A stretch of 32,000 nucleotides of DNA from Candidatus Methanophagaceae archaeon (GCA_003194425.1 PQXB01000001.1:160444-192443), one strand, 5' to 3'; positions 499 through 23,537 are shown, counted from the first letter of the stretch. The notes: generated by a model from the sequence alone, not told the origin. Numbers and translations: made by a program.

Positions 499-1242
499 TT
501 AGACCACCCCCTGTAAGCCCCAGTAAATGAGTGGCAGAAGGAACACGACTGCGATTAGTAGCCCAGTAAAAAGCCCCAACGTAGCGTTCATCGAAATCCC
601 TGACGATAACTTCTGGTCTCTCGCGATTAACTGTGCCTTGTACTGAATGTCAGTCGCGGCGTGATTTATCACTTCCATATAAGGTGTGGCGGGCATTGCC
701 AAAGGCATCTCCAAGACTGCACCCAGCGCCTCCTCTTCGCCCACCTTCACAATCATCGGGTCTTCAGGAAAAGCACCAGGGTCCCTCGCTTTCAGCTCGT
801 TCACCTTCGCATTTATCGCACCGTAGTCCTCCACCCCGATCATATCGATTACTTCTACTTGGTTTCTGAACCGCTCGACCGCAGCGTCAGGTAGGTTCTC
901 AATGAACGGAATCGCACCTGTTGTGTCAATTATTTTACGGTTAGACGGGTCAATGCCGTTCTTCCAGAGTGCGAGCATCGAACCGCCGCTAATGTGCCCC
1001 GGAACCTCCGCTCCTGCGATGATGAGGAATCTGATGTTCGGATTTGAAATGATGTTTGTAATCATCTTCTCTAACCCGATGTTCTCTGTCTTGTCAGGTC
1101 CCTGAATCGCAATTCCTTGCAGGTTCTCGATGTGGAAGTACGAGCCTGTCGAGGAAATCGCGACGCAACTCTTCGGGTCGCCGACCTCGTAGTCACCTGT
1201 AACGAGCGGCCAACCATCTGGAACTTCTTTCTTCTCTACCAT
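499..1242 (-). CDS. mtrA: tetrahydromethanopterin S-methyltransferase subunit A (corrinoid-binding)
   Basis: 247 aa. The N-terminus (PDGWPLVTGDYEVGDP), NPNIRFLIIAGAEVPGHISG and a C-terminal TM anchor are typical of MtrA. The operon context agrees. Confidence 0.95.
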   Translation of the reverse strand: MVEKKEVPDGWPLVTGDYEVGDPKSCVAISSTGSYFHIENLQGIAIQGPDKTENIGLEKMITNIISNPNIRFLIIAGAEVPGHISGGSMLALWKNGIDPSNRKIIDTTGAIPFIENLPDAAVERFRNQVEVIDMIGVEDYGAINAKVNELKARDPGAFPEDPMIVKVGEEEALGAVLEMPLAMPATPYMEVINHAATDIQYKAQLIARDQKLSSGISMNATLGLFTGLLIAVVFLLPLIYWGLQGVV

Positions 1243-1245
1243 TTT

Positions 1246-1563
1246 TTATGCTCCTCCCACTTTCAGCCCTATTCCCAACTTGAACAACGCAAGCGTCACC
1301 GCCAGCACGCCAAAAATCACGCCGAAGACGAGCATCGTCACGAAGCCTGCGGTGTTCAACGCTCCTTCTCTGCGTGGCTGCGACATTACAAACCCGCTTG
1401 TAGGGTCAAGGCAGTTGAAGAGGTCGTCTACTGAAGTTTCCAATGCTGTTATCTGCTCCTCTATCGGTGCGAGGTTTACCTTGTAAAATCCTGGTCTTGC
1501 CACACCCACGGTAAGCGAGTCAGGATCCAGAACCACACCAAATTTCTCATTTATTACCAACAT
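1246..1563 (-). CDS. mtrB: tetrahydromethanopterin S-methyltransferase subunit B
   Basis: 105 aa. EEQITALETSVDDLFNCLDP followed by a C-terminal TM helix is MtrB-like. The stop lies 3 nt before the mtrA ATG. Confidence 0.9.
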   Translation of the reverse strand: MLVINEKFGVVLDPDSLTVGVARPGFYKVNLAPIEEQITALETSVDDLFNCLDPTSGFVMSQPRREGALNTAGFVTMLVFGVIFGVLAVTLALFKLGIGLKVGGA

Positions 1564-1678
1564 TTTCCTTCTTCTCTCTCCCTCCTCTCTTCTCCTTTTT
1601 CCCTCCTCTTCTCTACTCCTTCATCCTCTCTTCTCATCTTCAATTTCATTTCTTCCCTCCCCTTTTCTCTCCTGTCTC

Positions 1679-2545
1679 CTACTCGATCGTCTTGATCATC
1701 CCTGTACCTACTGTCGAGTACGCTTCCTCAAAGCACATTCTCACGAACTTCACGAAGCAGACCAACCACACGACCGCGCCGAAAATCACTAAAAGCACTC
1801 CGTCTACTACTCCACTAACGCCCCAGGTCGTAGTCGCGACCGCTGCCACCACAATTCCGAGAATTACGCAGAGCAGCCCTGAAACCTCAACCGAGACAAT
1901 CATCGTTCGCGGTCTTCGCTCGTCAGGACCGAGGCAGGCGTTGTACGGGTGAAACATTGCCATACAAGAGAGAATGAACATCACTGCGATGAGCCCGTTG
2001 CTAATTGCCTTGTCCAGCACTACATCAAAGTTCAGCGAGCCTGCCACGATTGAGAATTGAAGCAGCATCGCGATCGTCCCCGCCATTCCAAGTTCCGTCA
2101 TCCCCTGCTCCAATTTCGGAATCTTCATTCCGATTATCTTCTCGTGGTTCGAGAGCACGCCCGAGACCAGTCCGACAACGCCCATCAGCAGAACGCCGCC
2201 TAACGCCGCCGCTGGGGCAAGCACCGAGTCTCCGACCTTACTAACGACCTTGCTAACTAACGCGATTCCAACTAACGCCCCTACAATGCCGTAGCCCATT
2301 GCCAGCACGCCGATTGACGGAACGCCGGTTCCCAGCCCGTATTTAGAAGTCTTCCGCACGGAATCCATTCCCCAGACAAGAGCCAAAATCAAGCCCACCG
2401 CTTTTATCACTGCGGGCAGCCCTGGAAAAATCAGAATCACCGCCGAAATCACCCCTGCAATTATTCCCAACTGCTTTACATCGGGCGGAATTGTGAACCC
2501 CTCCGCCTTTTCTTCTTCTACTACCGGTCCTCCTCCGACTGTCAT
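1679..2545 (-). CDS. mtrC: tetrahydromethanopterin S-methyltransferase subunit C (polytopic membrane)
   Basis: 288 aa, glycine- and hydrophobic-rich polytopic protein, located between mtrD and mtrB in the canonical mtrEDCBAFGH order. Confidence 0.85.
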   Translation of the reverse strand: MTVGGGPVVEEEKAEGFTIPPDVKQLGIIAGVISAVILIFPGLPAVIKAVGLILALVWGMDSVRKTSKYGLGTGVPSIGVLAMGYGIVGALVGIALVSKVVSKVGDSVLAPAAALGGVLLMGVVGLVSGVLSNHEKIIGMKIPKLEQGMTELGMAGTIAMLLQFSIVAGSLNFDVVLDKAISNGLIAVMFILSCMAMFHPYNACLGPDERRPRTMIVSVEVSGLLCVILGIVVAAVATTTWGVSGVVDGVLLVIFGAVVWLVCFVKFVRMCFEEAYSTVGTGMIKTIE

Positions 2546-2546
2546 T

Positions 2547-3239
2547 TTATCCCGTCAGCCCTCCTAAATTCACTACCAGCACTACAAGAACGCCGCACAA
2601 GAGCGAAATAACGCCGCACGAAACTAGCGCCTTCGGCAGTCGCTTGAACTTCGGGTCTTGGAAGCCTTCGATCGTGCCGCCGATGTTGTAGGCTGCGATG
2701 ATCGCGTTTGCCACGAAGATTCCCATCGCCGCTATTCCTGCCATCGTCTCCTCGAAGTGCGCGTAGTTGAGCAGACCGAAGTACATAATTGCACCCCCGA
2801 AACCGCCTAACAACGCACCCACCATTCCCGAAATGTAGCTCACATTTGGCACCCCGTGCCCGTCGCACTGCGGTGTCTTGTAGGCTTTCTGCGGTTCTTT
2901 CGTTATCGGGTCTACATCCACTCTGCCCGAGACGGGAACGATGCCGGTTCCGAAGACATAAATCACATTCGCTACGAGCATCGTGACGCCCATCATCAGC
3001 CACGAGCCGACGCTGCCCGAGAGCGAGACAAGCAGAATATTATCGCTGAATGTCGCGACCGAAGACGCCGTAAAAAGACCGCACATCGCCGCGCCGAACA
3101 TTAGCATCACCGTTCCCGTTGCTACTCCTGTCGCTGTTCCCATCGCTGCTGGCGCTCCTCCTACAGGCAGCAGGTGAACGCCGAGACTCGCTAACACTCC
3201 CCCCAATATCACACAAACCAATATCAAAATTGGGTCCAT
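2547..3239 (-). CDS. mtrD: tetrahydromethanopterin S-methyltransferase subunit D
   Basis: 230 aa. The N-terminus MDPILI...HLLPVGGAPAAMGTATGVATGT matches the conserved MtrD N-terminus. There is a 1-nt gap to mtrC. Confidence 0.9.
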   Translation of the reverse strand: MDPILILVCVILGGVLASLGVHLLPVGGAPAAMGTATGVATGTVMLMFGAAMCGLFTASSVATFSDNILLVSLSGSVGSWLMMGVTMLVANVIYVFGTGIVPVSGRVDVDPITKEPQKAYKTPQCDGHGVPNVSYISGMVGALLGGFGGAIMYFGLLNYAHFEETMAGIAAMGIFVANAIIAAYNIGGTIEGFQDPKFKRLPKALVSCGVISLLCGVLVVLVVNLGGLTG

Positions 3240-3309
3240 TTTTCTCGCTCACTTCCTCTCCTTTCTCTCTTCCTCTCCTTTCTCTCTTCTCTCTTTTTCA
3301 TCTTTCATC

Positions 3310-4260
3310 TTACTCTCCTACAAAAGTCCCGTACCTCTTTCTCGCCCATCTCACCAGGACTAAATTCCCGACTATCATCGCTACTCCAATCACCAGTCCA
3401 ACTACGATTCCGATTACCGCTGCAGAGTCTCCAGCTGCGGCTTCTAAGTTCGGCAAATACCTTGCAACCTGCATCCCAACGAGCGTCCTCCAATTCTCGA
3501 AGAGAATTATCACGCCGAAGGTCAGTCCAGTGCAGGGACCGCCGAACTTCGCACAAAACGCCGCAATGTCCTTCTGTGTCCGCACGCCGCAGTCAGCGTA
3601 GCGCGTTATTTTGCCGTGGTAGACTACCCGCTTGCCCTCACCGAAAGGTCTGTCCTGGAACTCTCGCTCGGTGCCGTAGTGAATATCGCCTGTAGACGAC
3701 CCGATTGCCCCGACTGTGATGCCCCAAATAAAAGCGAGCATCGGCAGAGCGAAGGGGTGGTCCAAACCGGGATTTCCCGAGAGCGTCCCAAGATTGCTCT
3801 GAATGTATGCTATCGCCGTAATGCAGAGTGTTGCCATAAATCCATGCGTTGCGATTGGCATTATGTGCCCGTACAAGACATCGAGGTAAATCGGTTGCTC
3901 GAATCGTTTCTGTGCCGTCGTCCTGCCCACGTGCGCCGTTACCGAAAAAATCACATGAACTGCTTCGCCGACCACTGCCCCGATGGGAATCGCGATAATC
4001 GGGTGCGCCCCTTTGGAGAGCAGCACCCACGCGATAACGCCCGCTACGGTGCAGTAGAGTGCGTAGGCCGGTGCCTCACCAGAAATCGCCTTGTTGAAGA
4101 ACCGATGCACTTGTCCTACTTGTGGTGCCAGTTGCACTTGCGAGTTCGGATTGCTCTGTGACCCAACATCAGACTCGAGGTCCTCAAACATGCACGCTAC
4201 CAATGCCAAAAAAACTATCAGCAACATCCACGCAAACAGCATTGCTATTTCTATTGGCAT
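3310..4260 (-). CDS. mtrE: tetrahydromethanopterin S-methyltransferase subunit E
   Basis: 316 aa. EDLESDVGSQSNPNSQVQLAPQ, FNKAISGE, IWGITVGAIGSSTGDIHYG and CAKFGGP are hallmark MtrE motifs. Confidence 0.92.
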   Translation of the reverse strand: MPIEIAMLFAWMLLIVFLALVACMFEDLESDVGSQSNPNSQVQLAPQVGQVHRFFNKAISGEAPAYALYCTVAGVIAWVLLSKGAHPIIAIPIGAVVGEAVHVIFSVTAHVGRTTAQKRFEQPIYLDVLYGHIMPIATHGFMATLCITAIAYIQSNLGTLSGNPGLDHPFALPMLAFIWGITVGAIGSSTGDIHYGTEREFQDRPFGEGKRVVYHGKITRYADCGVRTQKDIAAFCAKFGGPCTGLTFGVIILFENWRTLVGMQVARYLPNLEAAAGDSAAVIGIVVGLVIGVAMIVGNLVLVRWARKRYGTFVGE

Positions 4261-4282
4261 AACGAAAAATATAGGGACGCCT

Positions 4283-4290
4283 CTTTAAAA
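4283..4290 (-). promoter_or_regulatory. candidate TATA box (TTTTAAAG on the minus strand) for the mtr operon
   Basis: The A/T element lies 23-30 nt upstream of the mtrE ATG (4260). This geometry fits a leaderless or very short-leader archaeal transcript. Confidence 0.3.
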
Positions 4291-4311
4291 GGTTTTCTAT
4301 TTTTTTACGCT

Positions 4312-5808
4312 TCAAACTTCCAAGCCCTCCAGAATCTCTGCGAATTTCCTGTCCGCGTTCCTCTTTTTCAGCTTTGCGAGCTTCACAATCTCGCTCTTGT
4401 CCACTCCAAATTCTCCCCCGCGAACGAACTCGGTCGCGTCCAAAAGCCGCTTCCCCACCCGAGACCGCACGACAACCGTCGAAAAGCCGTCTGGACTCCC
4501 GACCGAGCCGACCGAGATGTCTGCGAGCCGCGAGACGAAGTCGTCGCAGTAGGGACAGCCCTCCCGCACAACTCCCTCCAACTCCCGCACGTCGCAGGAA
4601 AAAACCTCTCCGTCCGCTGCGGTGACGATGAACTTCCCTTTTGTAATTTGCGTCTTCTCTGCGCGGTCGAGGTCAACGCCGAACCGCCGCCTCGTCTCCT
4701 CCTTCAGACCCTCGTAGTCAAAACTCTCAAGGCAGAACAAGCCCAGCACCGTGATTTCTGCCCCCGGGAATTCTCGTTCCAATTTCCGTACCGCTCTGAC
4801 CTCGCAGGGCGTTCCTACGACCGCAAGTCGCCTCTTGCTCTTGCTCTTACCCCCCTTTTCTTCCTCTTCCAACGCTCCTTCTTTCAACGCAGCCGCAATC
4901 TTTGAAACCATCGGGACACGCAGGTATTTCGTCCCGCTCGCGCTTCTCACCCCTGCCGCGTCCTCAACCACGACCGCCTCTGCCTTGTAGCCCTCTCCCC
5001 GCTGCACCACGACCGCGCTGTCAAAAAAACCGTTCTCCAGCCCTGCGACGAGCAGAGCCGAGACCATTCCTCCGTCCTGCCCTTGCACAACTGAACTCTT
5101 AGCCGCGACCAAATCGCTGTAAACGCCCAGTGCCTCGTCTCGCTTACTCCCTGCCCCTAAATCCAAGAACCTGTTTTCAATTTCCCGCTCGTCCTCCGCG
5201 GTCGTCGGAAAAATATTCTTCGCCAATTTTATCGCTTCTGTGGGGCAGACGAGAGCACACGAGCCACAACCCACGCAGTCGTCGGAGGGCTCTTTGTACG
5301 GCGTGCCGACCTCCCGCTCCACGCCACGACCCAGAACATTTATCGCCGAGACGCCGACCAACTCCTCGCAGACCCGCGTGCACAACCCGCAGAGAATGCA
5401 GTGCTCCTCTGCTTCGTCCTTTTTCGCTGCCAACTCCAGCCTGAATCTCGGCTTCCCCTCTCCCTCTCTCACCCCGTACTCCCTCGCCAGACTTTGAATT
5501 CTGCCCTCCCCAGGACACCTCGCGAGCAGCAGTTCCAGGAGCATTTTCCTTACTTCGACGACCTCTGGAGATTTGGTCTTTACCACCAGCCCCTCCTCGG
5601 CAGGGTAGTTGCAGGCGGTGACAATTTTCTTCCTGCCTCTCCCTCCTCGCCACTCAATCTCAACCGAGCAGAGCCGACAAGCGCCAAACGGCTCCAACGC
5701 GGGGTGGTAGCACAAAGTCGGAATTTCAATGCCAACGCTTCTCGCCGCGTCCAATAAGGTAGCTCCTTCCTCTATTTCCACTACCTCCCCGTCAATTTCT
5801 AATTTCAT
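4312..5808 (-). CDS. fusion protein: N-terminal NuoG/HydA-type [2Fe-2S] plus 2x[4Fe-4S] ferredoxin domains, C-terminal FrhB/FdhB-type F420-binding domain
   Basis: 498 aa. The N-terminus MKLEIDGEVVEIEEGATLLDAARSVGIEIPTLCYHP...GACRLC resembles the 2Fe-2S domain of NuoG/HydA. It is followed by CILCGLCTRVCEE and CVGCGSCALVCP. The C-terminal half has GQDGGMVSALL, VVGTPCEVRAVRKL, LGLFCLESF and CPYCDDF..LADISVGSVG, as in the FrhB_FdhB N and C domains. The ATG overlaps the upstream stop (ATGA). Confidence 0.8.
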   Translation of the reverse strand: MKLEIDGEVVEIEEGATLLDAARSVGIEIPTLCYHPALEPFGACRLCSVEIEWRGGRGRKKIVTACNYPAEEGLVVKTKSPEVVEVRKMLLELLLARCPGEGRIQSLAREYGVREGEGKPRFRLELAAKKDEAEEHCILCGLCTRVCEELVGVSAINVLGRGVEREVGTPYKEPSDDCVGCGSCALVCPTEAIKLAKNIFPTTAEDEREIENRFLDLGAGSKRDEALGVYSDLVAAKSSVVQGQDGGMVSALLVAGLENGFFDSAVVVQRGEGYKAEAVVVEDAAGVRSASGTKYLRVPMVSKIAAALKEGALEEEEKGGKSKSKRRLAVVGTPCEVRAVRKLEREFPGAEITVLGLFCLESFDYEGLKEETRRRFGVDLDRAEKTQITKGKFIVTAADGEVFSCDVRELEGVVREGCPYCDDFVSRLADISVGSVGSPDGFSTVVVRSRVGKRLLDATEFVRGGEFGVDKSEIVKLAKLKKRNADRKFAEILEGLEV

Positions 5809-7757
5809 CTTCTTCTCTCACCTCCACTCCGCACCTTTCTCCTTTCTATTTCCCGCTCCGCTTCAGGCACCGGCGGAGGAACCGGCACGCCAGAAATCTT
5901 CTTCACCGCCCTCACCTTCGGCGGACAAACATCAAAACAAATCCCGCACTTTACGCACTTACTCTGGTCAATTACGTGCACTTTTTTCTTCCCGCCCGAA
6001 ATCGCACCCTCAGGGCAGTTCTTCAGGCAAAGCAGACAAGCAACGCACTTCTCCGGCTCGATGTAGTACGAAATCAAGTCCTTACAAAACAACGCAGGAC
6101 ATCTCTTCTCCGCGATGTGCGCCTCGTACTCGTCCCTAAAGTAGCGGAGCGTGCTCAAGACCGGGTTCGCCGCGGTCGTCCCCAGAGCGCAGAGTGACGC
6201 CTTTTTCATCACCTCTCCAATCTCCTCGAGCATTTCAATGTCGCCCTCCTTCCCCCTACCCGCCACGACACCCTCCAAAATCTCTCGCATTCTCCTCAAA
6301 CCCTCTCGGCACGGCACGCACTTGCCACACGACTCGTCGCAGAGGAAATCCACGAAGTAGCGCGCCAAATCCACGATGCACGTCTCCTCGTCGATCACGA
6401 TCATTCCGCCCGAGCCCATCATCGAGCCCAGCCTCGTGAGTTCGTCAAAATCAACGGGTGTGTCGAGGAACTGCTCTGGAATTATTCCGCCTGAGGGACC
6501 GCCGGTCTGGACGCTTTTGAACCGTTTTCCGCCGCGAATCCCTCCCCCGATTTTGTAAATAATTTCACGCAGCGTCGTCCCCATCGGGACCTCCACCAAG
6601 CCCGTGTTGTTCACTGTGCCGACGAGCGAGAAGATTTTCGTGCCCTTGCTGCCCTCGGTTCCGATTGAGTTGAACCAGTCCGCGCCTTTGGCGATGATTA
6701 GCGGCACGTTCGCCCAGGTCTCGACATTGTTGAGGTTGCTCGGTTTGTCCCAGACGCCGCTCTCGGAGGTGTGGATGTATTTTGGTCGTGGTTCGCCGAC
6801 TTTTCCCTCGATCGCATTCATCAAGGCACTGGACTCACCGGAGACGAAGGCACCCGCACCCCTGTGCACTTTCACATCGAAATTGAAGCCCGAGCCCAGA
6901 ATATTCTCGCCAAGAAATCCGTACTCCTTCGCCTGCTCGATAGCGACCCCCAGATTTGCGATCGCGATTGGGTATTCCTGTCGCACGTAAACGAAGCCCT
7001 GGTGAGAGCCGATTGCGTAAGCGCCGATTGTCAGCCCCTCGAGGACGCGGTGCGGGTTGCCCTCCATAATTGACCTGTCCATATAAGCACCCGGGTCGCC
7101 CTCGTCGCAGTTTACGATTACATATTTTGGTTCTCCTGCTGCGTTCCGAGTGGTTTCCCACTTCCTGCCAGCGGGAAACCCGCCGCCACCCCTGCCTCGC
7201 AAATTCGCTCTCTTCACCTCTTCCAGCACCTCCTCGGGCGTCTTCTCCTCCAACACCTTCGCTAACGCCTTGTAGCCGCCGAGAGCGAGGTAGTCCTCGA
7301 TTTTCGTCGGGTCGATCCAGAGGTTTCCCTTGAAGACGAGGCGGGTCTGGTGCTTGTAGAACGGAATGTCCTGCTCGTGAACGCTTCGTTCGCCGGTGCT
7401 GGGCTCGGCGTAAAGCAGCCGCTCAATAATCCGCTTCCCTTTTATCGTCTCTGAAACAATTTCCGGCACGTCCTCGGGCGTTACTCCAAGGTAGCAAATC
7501 TCCTCAGGATAAATCACAAGAATCGGACCACGCTCGCAGAACCCGTGGCAGCCCGTCCTCCGAACGCCCACCTGCTCAGTCAGACCTTGCTTCTCCAACT
7601 CCTCCTGAATCGCAGCAGCAACCGCGTCGCTGCCCGTCGCGTGGCACGCCGTCCCAGAGCAGAGCGTGATGAACGGCTTGTTCAAGTCCCGCCCTGCCAC
7701 AATCTTTCTTCTCAACTCCCTCAATTCTTGCCCTGAGTTTAGTCTCGTTCTTGGCAT
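5805..7757 (-). CDS. NuoF/HydB-type flavoprotein subunit (NAD(P)H-binding, FMN, multiple Fe-S clusters)
   Basis: 650 aa. It has an N-terminal thioredoxin-like 2Fe-2S region (CSGTAC...GCHGFCERGP), RGRGGGGFPAGRKWE (FMN/NADH site), CGKCVPCREG (N3-type 4Fe-4S) and a C-terminal 2x4Fe-4S region (CVACLLCLKNCP, CVKCGICFDVCP). Confidence 0.9.
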   Translation of the reverse strand: MPRTRLNSGQELRELRRKIVAGRDLNKPFITLCSGTACHATGSDAVAAAIQEELEKQGLTEQVGVRRTGCHGFCERGPILVIYPEEICYLGVTPEDVPEIVSETIKGKRIIERLLYAEPSTGERSVHEQDIPFYKHQTRLVFKGNLWIDPTKIEDYLALGGYKALAKVLEEKTPEEVLEEVKRANLRGRGGGGFPAGRKWETTRNAAGEPKYVIVNCDEGDPGAYMDRSIMEGNPHRVLEGLTIGAYAIGSHQGFVYVRQEYPIAIANLGVAIEQAKEYGFLGENILGSGFNFDVKVHRGAGAFVSGESSALMNAIEGKVGEPRPKYIHTSESGVWDKPSNLNNVETWANVPLIIAKGADWFNSIGTEGSKGTKIFSLVGTVNNTGLVEVPMGTTLREIIYKIGGGIRGGKRFKSVQTGGPSGGIIPEQFLDTPVDFDELTRLGSMMGSGGMIVIDEETCIVDLARYFVDFLCDESCGKCVPCREGLRRMREILEGVVAGRGKEGDIEMLEEIGEVMKKASLCALGTTAANPVLSTLRYFRDEYEAHIAEKRCPALFCKDLISYYIEPEKCVACLLCLKNCPEGAISGGKKKVHVIDQSKCVKCGICFDVCPPKVRAVKKISGVPVPPPVPEAEREIERRKVRSGGERRR

Positions 7758-7764
7758 TTTTCAC

Positions 7765-8256
7765 CTACGCGTACTTTTCTAAAATCCCCGCTACCATCGC
7801 GGGCGTAATCTTGCCGTGGTAATTCCCGTCAACCACCACCACCGGTCCCATCGCACAGCAGCCCAGACAATTCACCCGCCGCAGACTAAACCGCCTGTCC
7901 AGCGTCGTCTCGCCCTCTTTTATCCTCAGCCGCTCCTCCAGCCTGTCCAGAATCTTCGGCGCACCACGAACCTGACAGGCAGTGCCAAGACAAACCTGCA
8001 CCGTGTGGCGACCCGCCGGAGTCAGGCTCATCGCTTCATAAAAACTCGCCACGCGGTAGATTTTGCTCTTTGGAACTCGCAACCGCTCGCTTATTCGTGC
8101 AATCGCCTCTCTTGGAATCCAGTTGAACTCGCTCTGAATGTCCAGCAGTAACTGAATCAAAAACCCCTCCTCGCCCCGCTCCTTGTAGCCCTCAATTATT
8201 TCCTCCACCCTCTCCAACCCTGTTTCCAACTCGGTTTTCAAGTTTGTTTTTCCCAT
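7765..8256 (-). CDS. NuoE/HydC-type thioredoxin-like [2Fe-2S] subunit
   Basis: Homology starts at the internal ATG (MGKTNLKTELE...). Motifs are QLLLDIQSEFNWIP, VCLGTACQVRGA and VNCLGCCAMGPVVVVDG. The 5' extension of the track ORF (to 8607) overlaps queE and is rejected. Confidence 0.85.
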   Translation of the reverse strand: MGKTNLKTELETGLERVEEIIEGYKERGEEGFLIQLLLDIQSEFNWIPREAIARISERLRVPKSKIYRVASFYEAMSLTPAGRHTVQVCLGTACQVRGAPKILDRLEERLRIKEGETTLDRRFSLRRVNCLGCCAMGPVVVVDGNYHGKITPAMVAGILEKYA

Positions 8257-8281: not shown

Positions 8282-8289
8282 TTTATAAA
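8282..8289. promoter_or_regulatory. palindromic TATA element TTTATAAA in the divergent nuoE-like/queE intergenic region
   Basis: Perfectly self-complementary octamer. It lies 26-33 nt from the nuoE-like ATG (8256), which fits a leaderless transcript, and 64 nt upstream of the queE ATG (8353). Confidence 0.35.
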
Positions 8290-8352: not shown

Positions 8353-9180
8353 ATGACACGGGGCTACGTAACCGAAATGTTCAGCTCCTTCCAGGGTGAA
8401 GGACCCTACGCAGGCAGGAGGCAGGTCTTTCTTCGGTTTGCGGGCTGTCCCCTCTCTTGTTTTTACTGCGACACCGCCTACGCAAGAGAGCCCAGACCAA
8501 AGTTCTGCAACCTGCTCCGCCCTGACAAGAAGACCCGCAAAAGAAACCCGCTGTCCGCGAGCGAGGTGCTGGACTGCGTAAAAGCGCTGCTCTCTCCCGA
8601 CCTGCACAGCGTCTGCTACACCGGCGGCGAGCCGCTCACACCGTCTTCCGCGGGGTTCGTAAAAGAAATTGCAAACGCGGTAAAAGAGACGGGGCTAAGG
8701 AATTTTTTAGAGACGAGTGGGTGCTCGGCACGGGCGTTCGCGTCTTTAGCCGACTGCTTTGACTTCGCTTCGGTTGACATAAAACTGCGGGGTCACCAAG
8801 CGGTGCAGGGGGAAGACAGCTACGAGGCGTTGTACAGGAACGAGCTTGAGTGCGTAAGAATCGCGGTTGAGCGGGGTGTAGAGACGGTGGTGAAGGTGGT
8901 AGTGCTAAAGGGCACGCCCGCGGCGGAAATCGAAGAAATCTGCAGAGACCTTTCGGGGTTTGAATTTGGGTTAGAGGAGAGAGGAAGGGGCAGGGAAAAG
9001 GGTAGGGGAAGGGGCAGGGAAAAGGGTAGGGTAAAGTTTGTGTTGCAGCCTGTTACTGCTCCGCGGTCGGGGGCAGTGCCGAGCACAGAGGAACTCTTTG
9101 AACTTTCCGAAGTGGCGGGGCGGTTCTTACGCGATGTTGCGGTGATTCCGCAGGTGCATAAATTTTTGGGAGTTTTATGA
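8353..9180 (+). CDS. queE: 7-carboxy-7-deazaguanine synthase (radical SAM, archaeosine/queuosine precursor pathway)
   Basis: 275 aa. The N-terminus YVTEMFSSFQGEGPYAGRRQVFLRFAGCPLSCFYCDT (CxxxCxxC) is typical of QueE. It carries an in-frame GRGREKGR x2 insertion. Confidence 0.8.
   Translation: MTRGYVTEMFSSFQGEGPYAGRRQVFLRFAGCPLSCFYCDTAYAREPRPKFCNLLRPDKKTRKRNPLSASEVLDCVKALLSPDLHSVCYTGGEPLTPSSAGFVKEIANAVKETGLRNFLETSGCSARAFASLADCFDFASVDIKLRGHQAVQGEDSYEALYRNELECVRIAVERGVETVVKVVVLKGTPAAEIEEICRDLSGFEFGLEERGRGREKGRGRGREKGRVKFVLQPVTAPRSGAVPSTEELFELSEVAGRFLRDVAVIPQVHKFLGVL
8984..9031 (+). repeat. perfect 24-bp x2 tandem repeat inside queE (encodes GRGREKGR twice)
   Basis: Positions 8984-9007 and 8008+1000-9031 (that is, 9008-9031) read identically: gaaggggcagggaaaagggtaggg. 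Confidence 0.9.
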
Positions 9181-9258: not shown

Positions 9259-10482
9259 TTACAGAATTCTGCCTGAGCCGATTAAGTGCCACCGTGCGCC
9301 GATTTTCCGTCCGATTGCGACACGAGCTCCATTTTCCGCGCAAATCGGTCTGCTCAGTTTCACATCAACTGTCTCTCTCGCTTTCGTCACCCGCTTCACC
9401 TCGCCCATTGTGATTGCGGTTCCTACGCTCAGCATCACTTTCTCGCCCAGTTTTATCGCCTGAATCCCCTCCTCTTTCGCTACGCCGACGACACGGTCCA
9501 GCAAGTGAAATTCGATTCGGAGTTCGTTCCGAGTCGGAGGTAGCGACCCAAGCGTGCCGACGCACTGCCCCACCAACGAGTCTTCGATTGTCAAGCTGGG
9601 GTCCAGTTTTGTGCCGACGCCGATTAGACCGCCTGGGGTCACTTCTTTTACCCGCTCGCCGCCTGCGATTATTGAACTTATCTCGGTCTCAATCGGCTGC
9701 CACGTCTCCTTCTCCTTTCCTCCCGCTTCCTTTCCTCCCGCTGTCGCCACCCGACCCGGTCGGATTTCCAGCCTGTCGCCTTCTCGCAGCCTGCCCTGAA
9801 GCAGCGAACCGCCGATTACCCCGCCCTTCAGATTTTTTATCGGCGTTCCGGGTTTGTTTACATCAAAGGAGCGAGCAATGTGCATAATTGGAGGCTTGTC
9901 AGCGGGACGCGAGGGAGTAGGAATTTCCTGCTCGATGCACTGAATTAAAATGTCAAGATTCGCGGACTGTTGGGCCGAGATTGGGACAATCGGCGAGTTT
10001 TCCGCACCCGTTCCCCTAACAAACTCTTTTATTTGGCGGTAGTGTTGCAGTGCTTCCGCCCGCGAGACGAGGTCTATTTTGTTCTGCGCAATCACGATTT
10101 TCTTGATCCCGATTAAGTTCAGAGCCATCAGGTGCTCCTTCGTCTGCGGCTGCGGGCAGGGTTCGGAGGCTGCGATTAGGAGAACAGCACCGTCCATTAT
10201 CGCGGCACCGCTCAGCATCGTCGCCATCAACGCCTCGTGCCCCGGCGAATCGACGAACGAGACAGACCGCAGCTCCTCGGTCCTTGACCCGCAGTGCTTG
10301 CAGAACTCTTCGACGGTGTAACACCCCGGCTCCTCACAGGCAGGACATTTTCTGAATGTCACGTCTGCGTAGCCGAGCCGAATTGAAATTCCGCGTTTTA
10401 TCTCCTCGCTGTGCCTGTCCGCCCACTCGCCTGACAAGGCTCTCACTAAAGTCGTTTTCCCGTGGTCTACGTGCCCGACCAT
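9259..10482 (-). CDS. eif2g: translation initiation factor aIF2 gamma subunit
   Basis: 407 aa. Motifs are [10 protein letters not shown] (G1), DSPGH (G3), NKIDL (G4) and a Zn knuckle CPAC...CKHC. The first ATG falls inside the conserved VNIGMVGH strand (see finding). Confidence 0.95.
9713..9742 (-). repeat. 15-bp x2 tandem repeat inside aIF2-gamma (encodes AGGKE twice)
   Basis: tcctttcctcccgct is repeated at 9713-9727 and 9728-9742. Confidence 0.9.
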
Positions 10483-10585: not shown

Positions 10586-11854
10586 ATGTTTGAGTTGCGA
10601 GCGGGCGAGAAGGAAATTCAGACCGCGGCGGGGCGGTTTGCGGAGGCGGAGGTCGCGCCGAGAGCGGCGGAAATCGACCGAAAGGCGAAGTTCCCGCGGG
10701 TGCTCGTGCGGAAAATGGCAGAGCAGGGGCTCTTTGGAATTCCGTTCCCAAAGAAATACGGCGGGGCAGGAGCGACTTTAACGAGCTACGTTGCCGCGGT
10801 AGAGGAGCTCTCGAAGGCGAGTGCGAGCGTTGGTTTCCTGAGTGCTGCGGGGCTTATTTCCGCGTTCCCTTTTCTCTACGCAGGCACAGAGGAGCAGAAA
10901 GAGAAATTCCTTCGACCCCTGTGTTTAGGAGAGAAGCAGGGGGCTTTTGCTTTAACTGAGCCGTCTGCTGGGTCTGACCCGCTCTCCATCAAGACAACTG
11001 CGGTTCGAGAAGGCGAAGGCGGTGGTAGAGGGGGAGGCAAGGATGAATTTGTGCTGAACGGGCGGAAGGCGTTTGTCACTAACACCGCGGTCGCAGACAT
11101 TTACTTGGTCTTCGCACAGACAGAGAAGGGTAGAAAGGGTGAGGAGAAGAGCGGAGAGAGAGAGAAGAGCGGAGTGAGAGAGAAGAGCGGAGTGAGAGAG
11201 AAGAGGAGAGAAGGAGGGAGGGGGGGAGGTTTGAGTGCGTTTGTCGTTGAGAAGGGGACGAAGGGCTTCTCGTTCGCTAAAATCGAGGAGCTGCTGGGAA
11301 TGCGAGGCTGTCTCGTTGGCGGGCTGACTTTCGACGACTGCAGAGTTCCCGCGGAGAACCTGCTCGGGAAAGAGGGCGACGGGTTCAGGATCGCGATGGC
11401 GACGCTGGACAGGGACAGAATCGCGATGAGTAGCATCGGCGTCGGCGTTGCTCAAGCCTGCCTCGACGCCTCAAAGAAGTACGCAAAAGAGCGGAGGCAG
11501 TTCGGACAGCCAATCGCAAACTTCCAAGCAGTCCAGTTTATGCTCGCTGACATTGCTGTGGAGACTGAGGCAGCGCGGCTACTCACCTACAAAGCCGCTT
11601 CTCTCGCAGACAAAGGCGACGGAAGAAAAGGCGGAGGAGCGGAGAAAATCACGAAAGAGGCGGCGATGGCGAAGCTCTACGCCTCGGAAGTTGCCCAGCG
11701 GGCTGCCACAAACGCAGTTCAGATTCACGGCGGGTTCGGCTGCACGAAGGACTGCCCCGCGGAACGGTATTTCCGGGACGCACGGGTGCTCGGCATCGCG
11801 GTAGGGACTTCAGAGATTCAGCGGCTCGTGATCGCGAGGGAAGTGCTGAGGTAA
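10586..11854 (+). CDS. acyl-CoA dehydrogenase
   Basis: 422 aa. Motifs are FALTEPSAGSDP, FVTN, the C-terminal QIHGGFG and TSEIQRLVIAREVL. It contains a low-complexity EKSG(E/V)R repeat insertion. Confidence 0.9.
   Translation: MFELRAGEKEIQTAAGRFAEAEVAPRAAEIDRKAKFPRVLVRKMAEQGLFGIPFPKKYGGAGATLTSYVAAVEELSKASASVGFLSAAGLISAFPFLYAGTEEQKEKFLRPLCLGEKQGAFALTEPSAGSDPLSIKTTAVREGEGGGRGGGKDEFVLNGRKAFVTNTAVADIYLVFAQTEKGRKGEEKSGEREKSGVREKSGVREKRREGGRGGGLSAFVVEKGTKGFSFAKIEELLGMRGCLVGGLTFDDCRVPAENLLGKEGDGFRIAMATLDRDRIAMSSIGVGVAQACLDASKKYAKERRQFGQPIANFQAVQFMLADIAVETEAARLLTYKAASLADKGDGRKGGGAEKITKEAAMAKLYASEVAQRAATNAVQIHGGFGCTKDCPAERYFRDARVLGIAVGTSEIQRLVIAREVLR
11144..11206 (+). repeat. 18-bp x about 3.5 tandem repeat inside the acyl-CoA dehydrogenase (EKSGEREKSGVREKSGVREK)
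   Basis: gagaagagcggag(a/t)gaga units occur at 11144, 11162 and 11180, with a partial fourth unit. Confidence 0.9.
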
Positions 11855-16652: not shown

Positions 16653-16910
16653 CAACTTCCTCACGCCGTCTGCCAACCCGTGAGCGTAATTTATGCAGCC
16701 GAAGGCGGTAAAGAAATCCCCTTTTTCAAGGTAGTATTTCGCGTCCTCAAAATATGCCTTCGCAAGGCTCAACACCTCTTCTCTTGCTCCTGCAGCACTC
16801 GCAGCACCTGCAGCACTCGCAGCACCTGCAGCACTCGCAGCACCAAGCGACAACGCTTCAAAAAGTGCGATGTCTTTCTTTATCCTACCCGCTTCTTCGT
16901 TCAACTTCAC
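16614..16910 (-). CDS. DUF357-like small protein
   Basis: 98 aa with a GTG start overlapping the methyltransferase stop (GTGA). AKAYFEDAKYYLEKGDFFTAFGCINYAHGLADG resembles archaeal DUF357. It carries a GAASAA x3 insertion. Confidence 0.55.
   Translation of the reverse strand: MKLNEEAGRIKKDIALFEALSLGAASAAGAASAAGAASAAGAREEVLSLAKAYFEDAKYYLEKGDFFTAFGCINYAHGLADGVRKLSSQPNDKPENRT
16791..16844 (-). repeat. perfect 18-bp x3 tandem repeat inside the DUF357 gene (GAASAA x3)
   Basis: tgcagcactcgcagcacc occurs at 16791, 16809 and 16827. Confidence 0.95.
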
Positions 16911-17896
16911 GATCCTATTTTAAGTTGCCACGTCTTATTTTTCTTCCCATTCTTTTTTATAGCATCTTCCTCTTCCAGACCCTTAAACTCTAACAAGAAT
17001 TCGCGGATCCGCCTCTCCGCCAATTTCACATATTCTTCGCCTGTCTCGTAGCCAACATAATGGCGTCGGGTTTTTATCGCCGCTATTCCCGTCTGCCCGC
17101 TCCCCGCGAAAGGGTCTAAAACAACCTCGCCCTCGAAGGTGTAAAGTTGAATCAGCCTGTAAGGAAGTTCCACAGGGAACGGTGCTGGGTGTCCAACCCT
17201 ACGAGCAGATTCCGCAGGGAACGTCCAAACGCTTTTAGTAAACTCAAGAAACTCCTCCTTTGAGATTGTGCTTTTTCTTCTTCTTTTCTCGTTCTTGCTC
17301 TCTCCTCGGCTAAACCCGCTTTTAGAAAAGACCAAAATATATTCGTGAATGTCCCGCAGCGTGGGATTAGCAGCAGAAAGCCAGCTCCCCCACGCCGTTG
17401 AAGGGCTCGCACTCGCGGCTTTGTTCCAAATGATTTCCCCTCGCATCAAAAACCCTAAACCGAGCAGGTCCTCAAGCACAAAAGCGTGAAGAGGAATGTA
17501 CGGCTTTCTTTCTAAATTCGCGATGTTTACGCAGGCTCTACCGCCGGGCACGAGCACCCTGAAGACCTCTTTCCAAACCGTTCTTAAAAAATTTCTGTAT
17601 TCTTCAAGCGTTAAATTTTCGTCGTATTCTTTGCCCGCGTTGTAGGGCGGCGAAGTGACCATTAAATGAACGCTGTCATCTGGCAACTCGTCCATCTGTT
17701 CGCTCGATTTACAGAAGATTTTATCCAACAACTGCGGTGGAATGCGATTTTCCAGAAATTGCACTTTCTTTTCTTTTTCCCCTGGCAAACTTTCGTATAA
17801 TTTGCTGGCATAAAACGCGGTGGAATTATGATTTATTCGACCGGGCGAGCCAAACGAGCTTGTTTGCGTCCCTCTTTTTCTTTGACTGTTTGTCAT
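16907..17896 (-). CDS. beta-class DNA methyltransferase (SPPY motif; N4-cytosine or N6-adenine), no adjacent endonuclease
   Basis: Motif IV (LMVTSPPYNAGKEY) precedes motif I (VLDPFAGSGQTG), which is the beta-class order. The start is placed at ATG 17896, because the TTG at 17950 sits only a few nt from the TATA box. Confidence 0.85.
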   Translation of the reverse strand: MTNSQRKRGTQTSSFGSPGRINHNSTAFYASKLYESLPGEKEKKVQFLENRIPPQLLDKIFCKSSEQMDELPDDSVHLMVTSPPYNAGKEYDENLTLEEYRNFLRTVWKEVFRVLVPGGRACVNIANLERKPYIPLHAFVLEDLLGLGFLMRGEIIWNKAASASPSTAWGSWLSAANPTLRDIHEYILVFSKSGFSRGESKNEKRRRKSTISKEEFLEFTKSVWTFPAESARRVGHPAPFPVELPYRLIQLYTFEGEVVLDPFAGSGQTGIAAIKTRRHYVGYETGEEYVKLAERRIREFLLEFKGLEEEDAIKKNGKKNKTWQLKIGS

Positions 17897-17953
17897 TGTA
17901 TAATAAAGAGGATTTTGAAAAACCCCCGAAAACGAGTGAAAATGCCACAAAAG

Positions 17954-17961
17954 TATATAAA
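17954..17961 (-). promoter_or_regulatory. candidate TATA box (TTTATATA on the minus strand) for the methyltransferase gene
   Basis: The TATA-like octamer lies about 60 nt upstream of ATG 17896. Confidence 0.35.
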
Positions 17962-18097
17962 GAAGAGAGTGTTACGAGGAGTAAATCAAAATCCTCTAAA
18001 GTAAAATATTTCGCAGTCTTGAAATTTCCAAAAGGGGATTTTTGACGAAGCGGTGAAGCGTAGCGAAACCAAATACGCTCTGTTATACGCTGTGTCT

Positions 18098-18286
18098 TTA
18101 TTGGACTTTCTTAACTTGCTTCCCCAACAATTTGATATATTCAAGAAAACTTAACCCTTCGAATTCCGCTTCCTTAGCAATAATTTTCCTCGCGATATGA
18201 ACTTGCTGTAAAGCCGGGTCGTCTGGGAACTCCGCTTCCACCGCTCTTCTTATTTCCTCAATATCCTTCTCTTTGACCTTGCTCAT
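18098..18286 (-). CDS. small alpha-helical hypothetical protein downstream of the PIN gene (possible TA partner)
   Basis: 62 aa, charged, with a 15-nt gap after the PIN stop. I recognised no family. Confidence 0.4.
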   Translation of the reverse strand: MSKVKEKDIEEIRRAVEAEFPDDPALQQVHIARKIIAKEAEFEGLSFLEYIKLLGKQVKKVQ

Positions 18287-18301
18287 ATTTTCCCCCCCTT
18301 C

Positions 18302-18766
18302 CTATAACAATTCCGCAGGTGTCATAATCTCTATTTGCCTCAGGTTATTTAAAGTATTTACCCTCCTCACTCTGTCTCTCGTTTTTCTCCTTACAATGTG
18401 CCTAAAGTTCCAACTCAAAAGACAGTCTATCTCGTTTATCGCTGCGATAGCAATATGGTAGGCATCTTCAGGGTAACCCGCGGGAACTGCGTCATAGCGA
18501 ATATATTCGCTCGCTACCCTTTCAACGTCGTCAGTTAAAGCGAGGAGTGAAAATTGCGCGACTGCATCCTTCATTTTGCTTCGGAGTTCTATGTCTGGGG
18601 TTCGTTCAATCTCGGCAACCGTAATTTCGGAGATGAAAGTCTCAAAGTTACCTTTTTCCGCGAAAAAAGATTCTGTGAGCGATTTCCTCTCCGGATTCCG
18701 CTCATCAAACCGTGCTGAAATTACTGAGGTGTCTAAATACACTTTCCCTCTTCTTCTCAGTTTCAC
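18302..18766 (-). CDS. PIN-domain protein (VapC-like ribonuclease toxin)
   Basis: 154 aa. VYLDTSV (N-terminal Asp), SEITVAEIE, EDAYHIAIAA and LLSWNFRHI are arranged as in PIN domains. Confidence 0.75.
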   Translation of the reverse strand: MKLRRRGKVYLDTSVISARFDERNPERKSLTESFFAEKGNFETFISEITVAEIERTPDIELRSKMKDAVAQFSLLALTDDVERVASEYIRYDAVPAGYPEDAYHIAIAAINEIDCLLSWNFRHIVRRKTRDRVRRVNTLNNLRQIEIMTPAELL

Positions 18767-18835
18767 TTTCCTTTACCTCTTAGGCATTGCATAACTTCGG
18801 TATCCACTCGAGTTCACACATCCTCAAAATAAGTT

Positions 18836-19144
18836 TTATAGTCCCGTTGCATATTTTACACTCCCTAAAAGGTACGGACGAAGTCCGGGTTTCACCGTCC
18901 CATAAATTACAAGGTCAACCCTGCATTTGAATAAATCCTCAAGGAAAAGTTTTAATTCAATGTAATTGTCAAACGTTTTCTTACTCTTCTCAAATTCCAC
19001 CAGTATGTCTATGTCACTCCCTCTTCTTTGTTCATTTCTTACATACGAGCCAAATAATCCTATCTCTTTAACACCAAATCTTTTTATTATCGCTTTGCTC
19101 TCCTCGATTTTCTTCAATATTTCGTTTTCGTCCGCTGTTATCAT
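18836..19144 (-). CDS. minimal nucleotidyltransferase (MNT/MntA-type)
   Basis: 102 aa. GLFGSYVRNEQRRGSDIDILVEF is the GS-x10-DxD signature. Confidence 0.85.
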   Translation of the reverse strand: MITADENEILKKIEESKAIIKRFGVKEIGLFGSYVRNEQRRGSDIDILVEFEKSKKTFDNYIELKLFLEDLFKCRVDLVIYGTVKPGLRPYLLGSVKYATGL

Positions 19145-19273
19145 TTCTTCTTCACCTCTTTGGCAGAGACGGGCATTTTATAGGGCAAAATGTCCAGAAG
19201 GACAAGCTACTTAAGTGAGCATAGCGTAAACTTGTATTCTTATACTGTGCCACATCTCTTTATTAACCATAAC

Positions 19274-22182: not shown

Positions 22183-22188
22183 CTCCTT

Positions 22189-23498: not shown

Positions 23499-23537
23499 TT
23501 TTTTATGTTATTTCCAAACTTGAGCTCGCACACACTT

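Follow-up and report, generated by a model that had tools for sequence, protein, structure and literature searches.

How do electrons held by NAD(P)H and ferredoxin find their way back into energy conservation in the ANME-1 lineage of anaerobic methanotrophic (ANME) archaea? These organisms universally lack Fno and also lack Rnf, MetF replaces Mer in them, and the return of their NAD(P)H and ferredoxin electrons has been stated to be an important open question (Chadwick et al., 2022; PMC9012536). The three-gene cluster bfuCBA, located on a 32,000-nt stretch of DNA from a Candidatus Methanophagaceae archaeon (the whole stretch is referred to as the window in the following, and gene positions are counted from its first letter), raises this question anew. 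Our analysis suggests that its products probably form an F420-Bfu, a soluble heterotrimeric (or higher-order) flavin/iron-sulfur (Fe-S) enzyme of the BfuABC family that would connect NAD(H) and ferredoxin with coenzyme F420, the formation of F420H2 being the probable net direction. The initial annotation of this locus had proposed a soluble NAD(P)H/ferredoxin:F420 oxidoreductase, possibly bifurcating or confurcating; the sequence tests that we ran support this proposal, which coincides with the F420-Bfu prediction made in the literature (Schut et al., 2022; PMC9304861).

The three coupled genes that had been annotated, encoding a NuoE-type protein, a HydB-type NuoF and a third subunit, are indeed present on the minus strand (Table 1), and all six Pfam families suggested for a check of their domains (PF01257, PF01512, PF10589, PF13510, PF04422, and PF04432) were matched. 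While a longer open reading frame (ORF) reaching to a GTG at position 8607 is possible for bfuC, the gene calls of six relatives use the ATG start of the 163-aa protein, in which the PF01257 domain starts at residue 17. Seven nucleotides separate the stop codon of bfuC, overlapped by a GGTGA motif, from the bfuB ATG; bfuB and bfuA overlap by the 4 nt ATGA, with GGAGGTGA positioned 9 nt upstream of the bfuA ATG. Judged from this spacing, bfuC, bfuB and bfuA are translationally coupled. The TATA-box-like element TTTATAAA in front of bfuC is preceded by an A-rich stretch resembling a B recognition element, and no Shine-Dalgarno motif can be read at bfuC itself. The TTTATAAA region likely acts as the promoter for a bfuCBA transcript with a short leader or none, and bfuCBA reads as a self-contained transcription unit with its own promoter. 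These statements on promoters, and those made below, combine a reading of the sequence with the established architecture of archaeal promoters.

Table 1. Position and predicted character of the bfuCBA genes, of the domains of BfuA, and of the adjoining mtr region in the window.
Feature	Position (nt)	Strand	Description
bfuC	7765-8256	minus	NuoE/HydC-type thioredoxin-like [2Fe-2S] subunit, 163 aa; PF01257 (E 1.8e-48)
bfuB	5805-7757	minus	HydB-type NuoF, 650 aa; FMN/NAD(H) site
bfuA::frhB fusion, whole gene	4312-5808	minus	498 aa; PF13510, Fer4 families, PF04422, PF04432
BfuA residues 2-80	5569-5805	minus	HydA/NuoG-type [2Fe-2S] domain; C33, C44, C47, C66; PF13510 (E 5.7e-18)
BfuA residues 134-195	5224-5409	minus	2x[4Fe-4S] ferredoxin-like; C137/140/143/147 and C178/181/184/188; Fer4_7, Fer4_21
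BfuA residues 226-487	4348-5133	minus	FrhB/FpoF-type module with FAD, [4Fe-4S] and F420 site (predicted); C335, C359, C418, C421
bfuC promoter-like element	8282-8289	minus	TATA-box-like TTTATAAA, -33 to -26 from the bfuC ATG
bfuA-mtrE spacer	4261-4311	minus	51 nt; TTTTAAAG at 4283-4290, -30 to -23 from the mtrE ATG; T5 run
mtrE, D, C, B, A	499-4260	minus	Genomic context; Pfam MtrE (4e-105), MtrD, MtrC, MtrB, MtrA + MtrF

The assignment to the bifurcating enzymes rests in large part on BfuB. Over 585 gap-free positions, this protein is 56.1% identical to HydB (7t2r_B) of the NiFe-HydABCSL complex from Acetomicrobium mobile, an enzyme for which bifurcation is structurally proven. Its matches in the PDB form two tiers: the upper one (E 1e-233 to 1e-191) is composed of the B subunits of Bfu-type enzymes (7t2r, 8a6t, 9mqx, 7q4v, 9bov, 9n5u, 8oh5, and 7p5h), including WOR-Bfu, a bifurcating tungsten aldehyde oxidoreductase (9mqx_B, 6e-225), and the NuoF/Nqo1 proteins of complex I follow at about 1e-112. 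The domain content of BfuB comprises a thioredoxin-like 2Fe-2S domain at the N-terminus (PF01257, residues 27-103), PF01512 (1.6e-43), an SLBB domain, PF10589 (9.2e-34), and two Fer4 motifs at the C-terminus, so that the extra 2Fe-2S and 2x4Fe-4S sites of the initial annotation are retained and a B2/Zn site can be added to them. The flavin/NAD motif GRGGGGFP is found at residue 188. Alignment with 7t2r_B places the predicted ligands of the B1 [4Fe-4S] cluster at C477/C480/C483/C523 (C455/458/461/501 in the A. mobile protein) and those of the B2/Zn site at C460/H547/C553/C558 (C438, H525, C531, and C536); CxxCxxCxxxCP motifs represent the B3 and B4 [4Fe-4S] clusters (C571/574/577/581 and C601/604/607/611), and C33/C38/C70/C74 are the predicted ligands of the B5 site. 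The ligands of B1, B3, B4 and B5, together with four of the five B2 positions, are invariant in the family (19/19 members).

These sites are of particular relevance for the question of bifurcation. The B2 His has been reported as near-universal in BfuB proteins and missing from non-bifurcating homologs. The latter lack the B2-B5 sites, and deletion of B3/B4 abolishes bifurcation (PMC11829005). Losey et al. (2020; PMC7311640) have described three signatures of bifurcating beta subunits, namely Ala/Glu..Met near the NADH site, Phe instead of Tyr near the FMN, and GGPSG in the SLBB domain. BfuB displays the bifurcating type of each of them (DPGAYM at 221, GAGAF at 300, and GGPSG at 419), their positions having been placed by motif and not through a direct alignment to T. 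maritima HydB. The GESSAL motif of BfuB is also present in the NADH-using WOR-Bfu and does not discriminate between NAD and NADP. BfuC fits this picture: its predicted C1 [2Fe-2S] ligands are C89, C94, C130 and C134 (CX4C...CX3C), and among its PDB matches, which range from 1e-42 to 1e-32, the top six each belong to the C subunit of a Bfu-type enzyme (7t2r_C with 8.3e-42, 9mqx_C, 8a6t_C, 7p5h_C, 9n5u_C, and 9bov_C). Collectively, the features of the BfuABC family are found in the three proteins, that is, the NuoF-type FMN/NAD(H) domain with B1, the B2 His, B3-B5, the C1 site of BfuC, and a HydA/NuoG-type N-terminus of BfuA; as far as the alignments and motifs tell, every published cofactor ligand and signature of BfuBC is present with the exception of the variable fifth B2 ligand. 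BfuB additionally ends in a conserved, Pro-rich and basic tail of ~35 aa (ISGxPVPPxxPE..., window 5805-5915); HydB chains of known structure have no such extension, which is a family-specific feature.

BfuA determines which third substrate might be used. Its N-terminal part finds its best PDB match in the BfuA subunit of WOR-Bfu (9mqx_A, E 2.6e-40, residues 3-195) and also matches 8a6t_A (1.8e-35). The FrhB domains of its C-terminal half lie well over the Pfam gathering scores (PF04422, 7.8e-15, 55.2 bits vs 22; PF04432, 3e-38, 131.5 bits vs 23.3), and this half matches the sequences of FrhB (9r51_B, 3.8e-38; 3zfs_C, 1.7e-34) and Fsr (7np8_A, 2.2e-33). An AlphaFold model of BfuA, with a predicted local distance difference test (pLDDT) score of 79.5, was superposed by Foldseek on FrhB 9r51_B (E 2e-22; template modelling score, target, 0.79; root-mean-square deviation 2.9) and likewise on HydA/BfuA N-termini. 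The 16 cluster-forming Cys residues of BfuA, predicted to serve one [2Fe-2S], two ferredoxin-type [4Fe-4S] and the FrhB [4Fe-4S] cluster, are invariant in 118 of 118 full-length homologs, and the four residues of the FrhB cluster sit in motifs that FrhB 9r51_B has in common with BfuA. From the homology to F420-reactive enzymes, we infer that the FrhB half binds both FAD and F420. The previously annotated composition of the third subunit, a NuoG/HydA-like N-terminus followed by an FrhB half, can therefore be upheld, with the refinement that BfuA lacks the His-ligated [4Fe-4S] cluster located in HydA/NuoG between the 2Fe-2S and the 2x[4Fe-4S] domains. A further residue, Cys98 (in 'LLARCP', window 5515-5517), belongs to no predicted cluster, is likewise invariant in 118/118 homologs and, like the BfuB tail, is specific to the family.

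For an enzyme of this composition we propose the reversible reaction 2 F420 + NADH + 2 Fd(red) + 3 H+ <-> 2 F420H2 + NAD+ + 2 Fd(ox), where Fd is ferredoxin. NAD(H) would exchange its hydride at the FMN of BfuB. A mid-potential route would lead from F420 via the FAD and the [4Fe-4S] cluster of the FrhB module to the two [4Fe-4S] clusters and the [2Fe-2S] cluster of BfuA, and from there to B1/FMN; a low-potential route would lead from the mobile C1 cluster to B3/B4 and on to ferredoxin, and in solved relatives the C-terminal B3/B4 clusters of BfuB constitute the ferredoxin-side branch. B1, FMN and C1 would thus represent the 'flavobicluster', joined to the FrhB FAD through the clusters of BfuA. 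With published potentials of -360 mV for F420, about -280 mV for NADH and about -500 mV for ferredoxin (PMC9304861), the reaction should operate near equilibrium, and the position of F420 between the two other couples would make this enzyme a clean system for studies on the flavobicluster mechanism. In an ANME-1-type host, the net reaction would be a confurcation of NAD(P)H (e.g., from MetF) and of reduced ferredoxin (from Fwd or carbon monoxide dehydrogenase, CODH) into F420H2, which would then feed the membrane-bound F420H2:quinone oxidoreductase Fqo, with energy being conserved. If so, a deazaflavin would here serve as the third substrate of a Bfu enzyme for the first time.

Several observations weigh against this proposal. 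Activity, stoichiometry, the preference for NAD or NADP and the direction of the reaction are all deduced from homology and physiology, no member of the subfamily having been purified. The fifth B2 ligand position, a Cys (C476) in 7t2r_B, is occupied by V498 in BfuB; this position is a Thr in two-thirds of the BfuB sequences, and later structures revealed Zn in the B2 site and indicate that bifurcation can do without this site (PMC11829005). The ferredoxin-like region of the BfuA model reaches a pLDDT of only 49-68. None of the three subunits attains an NCBIfam equivalog cut-off: BfuB misses that of NuoF (TIGR01959, 473.9 vs 558.65), and BfuA misses those of NuoG (TIGR01973, 102.9 vs 470, with a match confined to residues 3-192), FrhB (TIGR03289, 164.3 vs 331.5) and FpoF (NF040616, 148 vs 475). 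This outcome argues for a distinct subfamily rather than for misplaced subunits of complex I or Frh, and no frhA/G or fpo/fqo neighbours were seen in any locus inspected; for annotation purposes, the lesson is that the bfuCBA genes should be labelled neither as complex I nor as Frh hydrogenase subunits. Transcripts of the corresponding ANME-1 gene cluster, termed FrhB8, are present (0.5-2.8 for the three genes, compared with 4.3-7.1 for Mtr and 0.7-3.2 for Fqo subunits; PMC9012536), a moderate level, and a low one for a principal route of catabolism. Furthermore, the gap between NADH and F420 amounts to only about 20-80 mV, so that coupling to ferredoxin is not thermodynamically obligatory.

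This last point leads to the main alternative, a non-bifurcating NAD(P)H:F420 oxidoreductase that would serve as an Fe-S substitute for Fno, with electrons moving along FMN, B1, BfuA, the FrhB FAD and F420, with B3/B4 being vestigial or structural, and with no participation of ferredoxin. The universal lack of Fno from ANME-1 (PMC9012536) would accommodate such an enzyme, the closeness of the NADH and F420 couples means that energetic coupling is not strictly needed, NADH-dependent non-bifurcating relatives of HydABC do exist (PMC7311640), and moderate expression would suit a role in balancing cofactor pools. Nevertheless, we regard this alternative as rather unlikely: the ligand sets of B2-B5, which known non-bifurcating homologs do not possess (PMC11829005), are strictly conserved family-wide, each of the three Losey et al. 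signatures takes the bifurcating form, and the nearest solved relatives of both BfuB and BfuC are exclusively bifurcating enzymes.

The two further explanations that we considered concern the partner of the NuoEF-like core. One could envision that the FpoF/FqoF-like half of BfuA serves to dock a NuoEF-like dehydrogenase, as a detachable input module, on an Fqo/Nuo-like complex without NuoEFG, so that electrons would flow from NADH to the quinone with concomitant proton pumping; NuoE, NuoF and the NuoG N-terminus do resemble the N-module of complex I, and the FrhB half matches FpoF models (NF040616, 3.1e-43; PRK09326, 9.2e-43). Such an arrangement appears most improbable to us when one considers that neither in the window nor at any inspected locus does a gene for an fqo/nuo membrane subunit adjoin bfuCBA, that BfuA lacks both the C-terminal domain of NuoG and the His-ligated cluster linking to the Q-module, that BfuB falls below the NuoF equivalog cut-off, that the nearest relatives are soluble Bfu enzymes, and that ANME-1 already express a dedicated FqoF/FpoF. 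Alternatively, the FrhB-like half might not use F420 at all; its FAD/[4Fe-4S] site could instead serve a different acceptor, or the half could act as an adaptor that connects to a partner encoded elsewhere. The FrhB fold is also found in the ferredoxin-dependent HCAR (5dqr, Foldseek E 5e-16), FrhB-like subunits are attached to Hdr, CODH and Fwd complexes, and the missed FrhB and FpoF equivalog cut-offs would agree with a deviating function. We consider this highly unlikely, since the closest relatives in sequence and fold (FrhB, Fsr, and FpoF) are all F420-reactive, the motifs common to BfuA and FrhB recur throughout the family, all hosts are F420/H4MPT-using archaea (H4MPT, tetrahydromethanopterin), the Bathyarchaeia-like clusters lie in the vicinity of the F420-dependent mtd gene (see below), and no fourth conserved gene accompanies bfuCBA.

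A bifurcating F420-Bfu consequently remains the interpretation that we favour, and its family is large. Relatives of the BfuA fusion fall into >1,300 clusters (90% identity) at E <= 1e-10, with source names that include ANME-1, Methanophagales, Methanolliviera, Halobacteriota, Bathyarchaeota and others. At 50% clustering, only two full-length fusion representatives occur among the best 150 matches of the whole-library search, so that the fusion family appears to be compact. As the initial annotation required, the three genes are conserved together: the order C-B-A is present in each of the 12 ANME-1/Methanolliviera loci whose contigs extend far enough upstream to be informative (12/12), and also in distant, Bathyarchaeia-like members with ~56% identity (L027, L029, and L030, and in part L031). 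BfuB is the most conserved subunit, with 72-86% identity, compared with 59-72% for BfuA. A match labelled 'candidate div...' was examined as a candidate bacterial member and rejected, as mtd lies on the same contig together with genes for an Mpt_N protein and an XPB helicase, which is an archaeal context; we found no evidence for bacterial members of the fusion family. It appears to be new that the F420-Bfu family extends far beyond the range given in the two earlier papers on such genes (PMC9304861; PMC9012536).

On three Bathyarchaeia/MSBL1-like contigs (L027:5863-8570, L028:2772-5545, and L029:1-2445), bfuCBA is found <3 kb away from mtd, the gene for an F420-dependent methylene-H4MPT dehydrogenase (PF01993), and the same contigs also hold a dehydrogenase with an Mpt_N domain near bfuCBA. 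At the level of gene neighbourhood, the proximity to mtd suggests a second, independent link of F420-Bfu to the H4MPT one-carbon pathway. In the ANME-1 loci, only housekeeping and restriction-modification genes (for adenine deaminase, rhomboid, MiaB-like, primase and other proteins) were seen where recurrent functional neighbours were looked for.

What physiological function might such an enzyme serve? Given that ANME-1 are devoid of Fno, F420-Bfu is a candidate for the missing connection between their NAD(P)H and F420 pools; this candidacy appears to be new, and the earlier papers did not make this link. We tentatively extend this view to the possibility, on balance a doubtful one, that F420-Bfu represents the missing nicotinamide/ferredoxin/F420 link of ANME-1-type archaea (and possibly of Bathyarchaeia), where it would replace Fno, Rnf and Ech and, during the oxidation of methane or alkanes, perform a central catabolic confurcation that delivers electrons to the proton-pumping Fqo. 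In that case, energy conservation in anaerobic methane oxidation would have F420-Bfu as one of its central steps and not as a side reaction. Extracts of ANME-1 exhibited no direct CO- or formyl-dependent reduction of F420 (PMC11493965), and an F420-Bfu that confurcates and supplies Fqo could close this gap. For Bathyarchaeia, the source of F420H2 has been called unclear (PMC7886697), and an F420-Bfu working there in the same direction would supply F420H2 for Mtd/Mer and thereby explain its origin. Hence, a conserved and widespread NuoEF-type core combined with an F420 module offers a concrete candidate for both of these stated open problems.

The origin of the NADH had been sought by the initial annotation in acyl-CoA dehydrogenases and beta-oxidation, a suggestion that we do not follow. 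Acyl-CoA dehydrogenases reduce the electron-transferring flavoprotein and not NAD+, and the neighbouring genes for such enzymes consequently do not provide a source of NADH. The window contains two acyl-CoA dehydrogenase genes (10586-11854 and 26107-27381), and the closest named relatives of its genome are labelled ANME-1/Methanophagales. An assignment of the host to Ca. Alkanophaga, to which these genes and the Guaymas-type relatives had pointed, was rejected, since the publication on that organism contains neither the genes nor the MAG ex4572_4; identical or near-identical proteins bear the names 'Methanophagales archaeon' and 'ANME-1 cluster archaeon ex4572_4' at NCBI, and the host is treated here as an archaeon affiliated with ANME-1/Methanophagales.

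Nor did the supposed tie of bfuCBA to the methyl-H4MPT branch through the neighbouring mtr genes withstand comparison with other loci, although the underlying observation, a gap of 51 nt to mtrE on the same strand with a TATA-like element in it, is exactly right. The mtrE gene has no Shine-Dalgarno motif, while the internal genes bfuB, bfuA and mtrD do carry motifs of this kind; a leaderless first cistron with a TATA-like box, together with Shine-Dalgarno motifs on internal genes, is the usual archaeal pattern. The spacer with TTTTAAAG is likely to constitute an independent mtr promoter. The linkage between bfuA and mtrE is restricted to contigs of the window's own genus (L020-L026), and mtr genes are found downstream of bfuA in none of the ten other ANME-1/Methanolliviera loci that extend >2 kb beyond this gene (0/10). 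In two ANME-1 loci (L004 and L015), rhomboid and MiaB-like genes come directly after bfuA, and in the relatives of the window these genes lie just past mtrEDCBAFGH and two further genes; this synteny is most simply read as an insertion or relocation of the mtr block.

Two strains of the window's genus are informative in this respect. A 1,242-nt insertion separates the bfuA stop codon from the mtrE promoter-like element in L021 (8708-10000) and L026 (6922-8214), with its target corresponding to the junction between window positions 4306 and 4307, so that the 46 nt next to mtrE are left intact in both. It carries an ORF of 348-352 aa on the opposite strand, shows neither terminal inverted repeats nor a match to Pfam or NCBIfam, and may be an unclassified mobile element. 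The TATA-like box of mtr, the missing Shine-Dalgarno motif of mtrE, the tolerated insertion and the genus-only linkage lead us to conclude that mtr is probably a separate unit, with some read-through being possible; the promoter of its own that had been suggested for mtr is in keeping with both the spacer sequence and the natural insertion. Accordingly placed next to mtr only within one genus, bfuCBA seems to owe its position to a lineage-specific rearrangement that is not part of the mechanism. Within the mtr cluster itself, MtrA (window 499-1242) possesses a C-terminal MtrF-like domain (PF09472, 1.8e-16), and in relatives (L022:13035-13967) this MtrA fusion is followed by a separate gene for a 62-aa MtrF-like protein, so that there are two MtrF-type segments per operon.

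Other features of the window are mentioned here for completeness. Neither tRNA genes nor Rfam families were detected in it, and a repeat scan found no tandem repeats inside 4312-8256. A purine-rich in-frame tandem repeat at 4830-4870 in bfuA encodes 'EEEEKGGKSKSKRR', which is absent from homologs, and like purine-rich repeats are situated at 8983-9036, 9713-9742 and 11139-11213 in the genes for a QueE-like radical SAM protein, eIF2-gamma and an acyl-CoA dehydrogenase, respectively. Such in-frame repeats yield Glu/Lys/Gly/Arg-rich inserts in unrelated proteins, similar pyrimidine- or purine-rich repeats fill the intergenic spacers of mtr, and the lineage appears to favour such repeats throughout its genome. 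A low-GC island (16900-23500; 0.38-0.42 vs 0.50-0.57 elsewhere) encodes a type II DNA methylase, PIN and TPR proteins, and an SIR2-like protein of 610 aa that weakly matches SIR2-type defence models, and it also holds two family-less ORFs; it has the appearance of a defence island gained by horizontal transfer. An R.HinP1I-like endonuclease (5e-53) and an N4/N6 methylase, encoded at 27601-29045, make up a complete type II restriction-modification pair. The CdhA-like protein of 752 aa encoded at 23538-25796 matches the CODH/acetyl-CoA synthase alpha model only in its C-terminal part (381 bits, the cut-off being 781) and has a weak match to Prismane; a divergent CODH is a possible identity, for instance one of the FrhB7-associated type described for ANME-1.

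How does the enzyme proposed here relate to known systems? Schut et al. (2022; PMC9304861), who defined the BfuABC family, predicted an uncharacterised Type 1 'F420-Bfu' (BfuB clade 45) with an F420-reducing FAD domain in BfuA and proposed that it oxidises NADH and ferredoxin to form F420H2. It shares with our proteins the BfuBC core, an F420-reactive BfuA with only a [2Fe-2S] and two [4Fe-4S] clusters, and the proposed reaction; however, that paper lists two Methanosaetaceae sequences and none from ANME-1, whereas the family delineated here is made up of the >1,300 clusters reported above. Clade 45 comprises Wor-, Bam- and F420-Bfu, and the closeness of the BfuA N-terminus to WOR-Bfu BfuA, together with the BfuB match to 9mqx_B, would indirectly agree with a possible placement in this clade. 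Chadwick et al. (2022; PMC9012536) described an ANME 'FrhB8/NuoF-Trx' cluster consisting of an FrhB paralog, a divergent NuoF and a 'thioredoxin' (NuoE-type) gene. In ANME-1 loci of the GoMg1/GoMg2 type (L004 and L016), the C-B-A cluster recurs with 68-86% identity, and judged by this resemblance the bfuCBA cluster of the window is almost certainly the FrhB8 cluster, for which that paper gave neither a function nor a link to Bfu or Fno and which it called almost exclusive to ANME. The architecture is consequently already known and named, as a prediction only. F420 was not mentioned in the later Bfu literature that we searched, and we found no biochemical characterisation of any F420-type Bfu enzyme in the literature, subscription-only papers being outside this search. 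The biochemical characterisation that would have spoken against the initial annotation was not found in this search, although the architecture had already been described and named.

Among the characterised enzymes, HydABC, NiFe-HydABCSL and WOR-Bfu (7t2r, 8a6t, 7q4v, 7p5h, and 9mqx) provide the top matches of BfuC and of the BfuA N-terminus; the proteins studied here differ from them in having no H-cluster, NiFe or tungstopterin subunit, in the Val at the fifth B2 position, and in the additional BfuB tail and BfuA Cys98. FrhB, FpoF/FqoF and the N-terminal half of Fsr share the fold and the motifs of the FAD/[4Fe-4S]/F420 module; in BfuA, this module is joined to a HydA/NuoG-type N-terminus and has NuoEF-type subunits as its partners. 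Fno possibly has an overlapping job, the exchange of hydride between the nicotinamide and F420 pools, but it is an unrelated, small and cofactor-free enzyme that transfers the hydride directly, without Fe-S clusters and without a ferredoxin branch. In Ca. Ethanoperedens, an alkane-oxidising relative without Rnf or Ech, FrhB-like subunits are attached to CODH and Fwd for the reduction of F420 (8RIU, 8RJA; PMC11493965), and by analogy this provides a precedent for alkanotrophs that funnel ferredoxin-bound electrons to F420 via FrhB-like modules; there, the module resides on CODH or Fwd and not on a NuoEF/Bfu core, and NAD is not involved. The best mechanistic analogue would seem to be the characterised NfnABC or Nfn-Bfu (Stn) transhydrogenases of S. 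ovata, C. saccharolyticus and T. sibiricus (9n5u), which possess the same BC core (BfuB 1.2e-198, BfuC 1.7e-33) and in which BfuA likewise ends in a flavin module for a mid-potential hydride carrier, NADPH, instead of a hydrogenase; in contrast to the enzyme proposed here, this module is an NfnB/GltD-like FAD module for NADP rather than an FrhB-type module for F420, and the BfuA subunit of Nfn carries more clusters.

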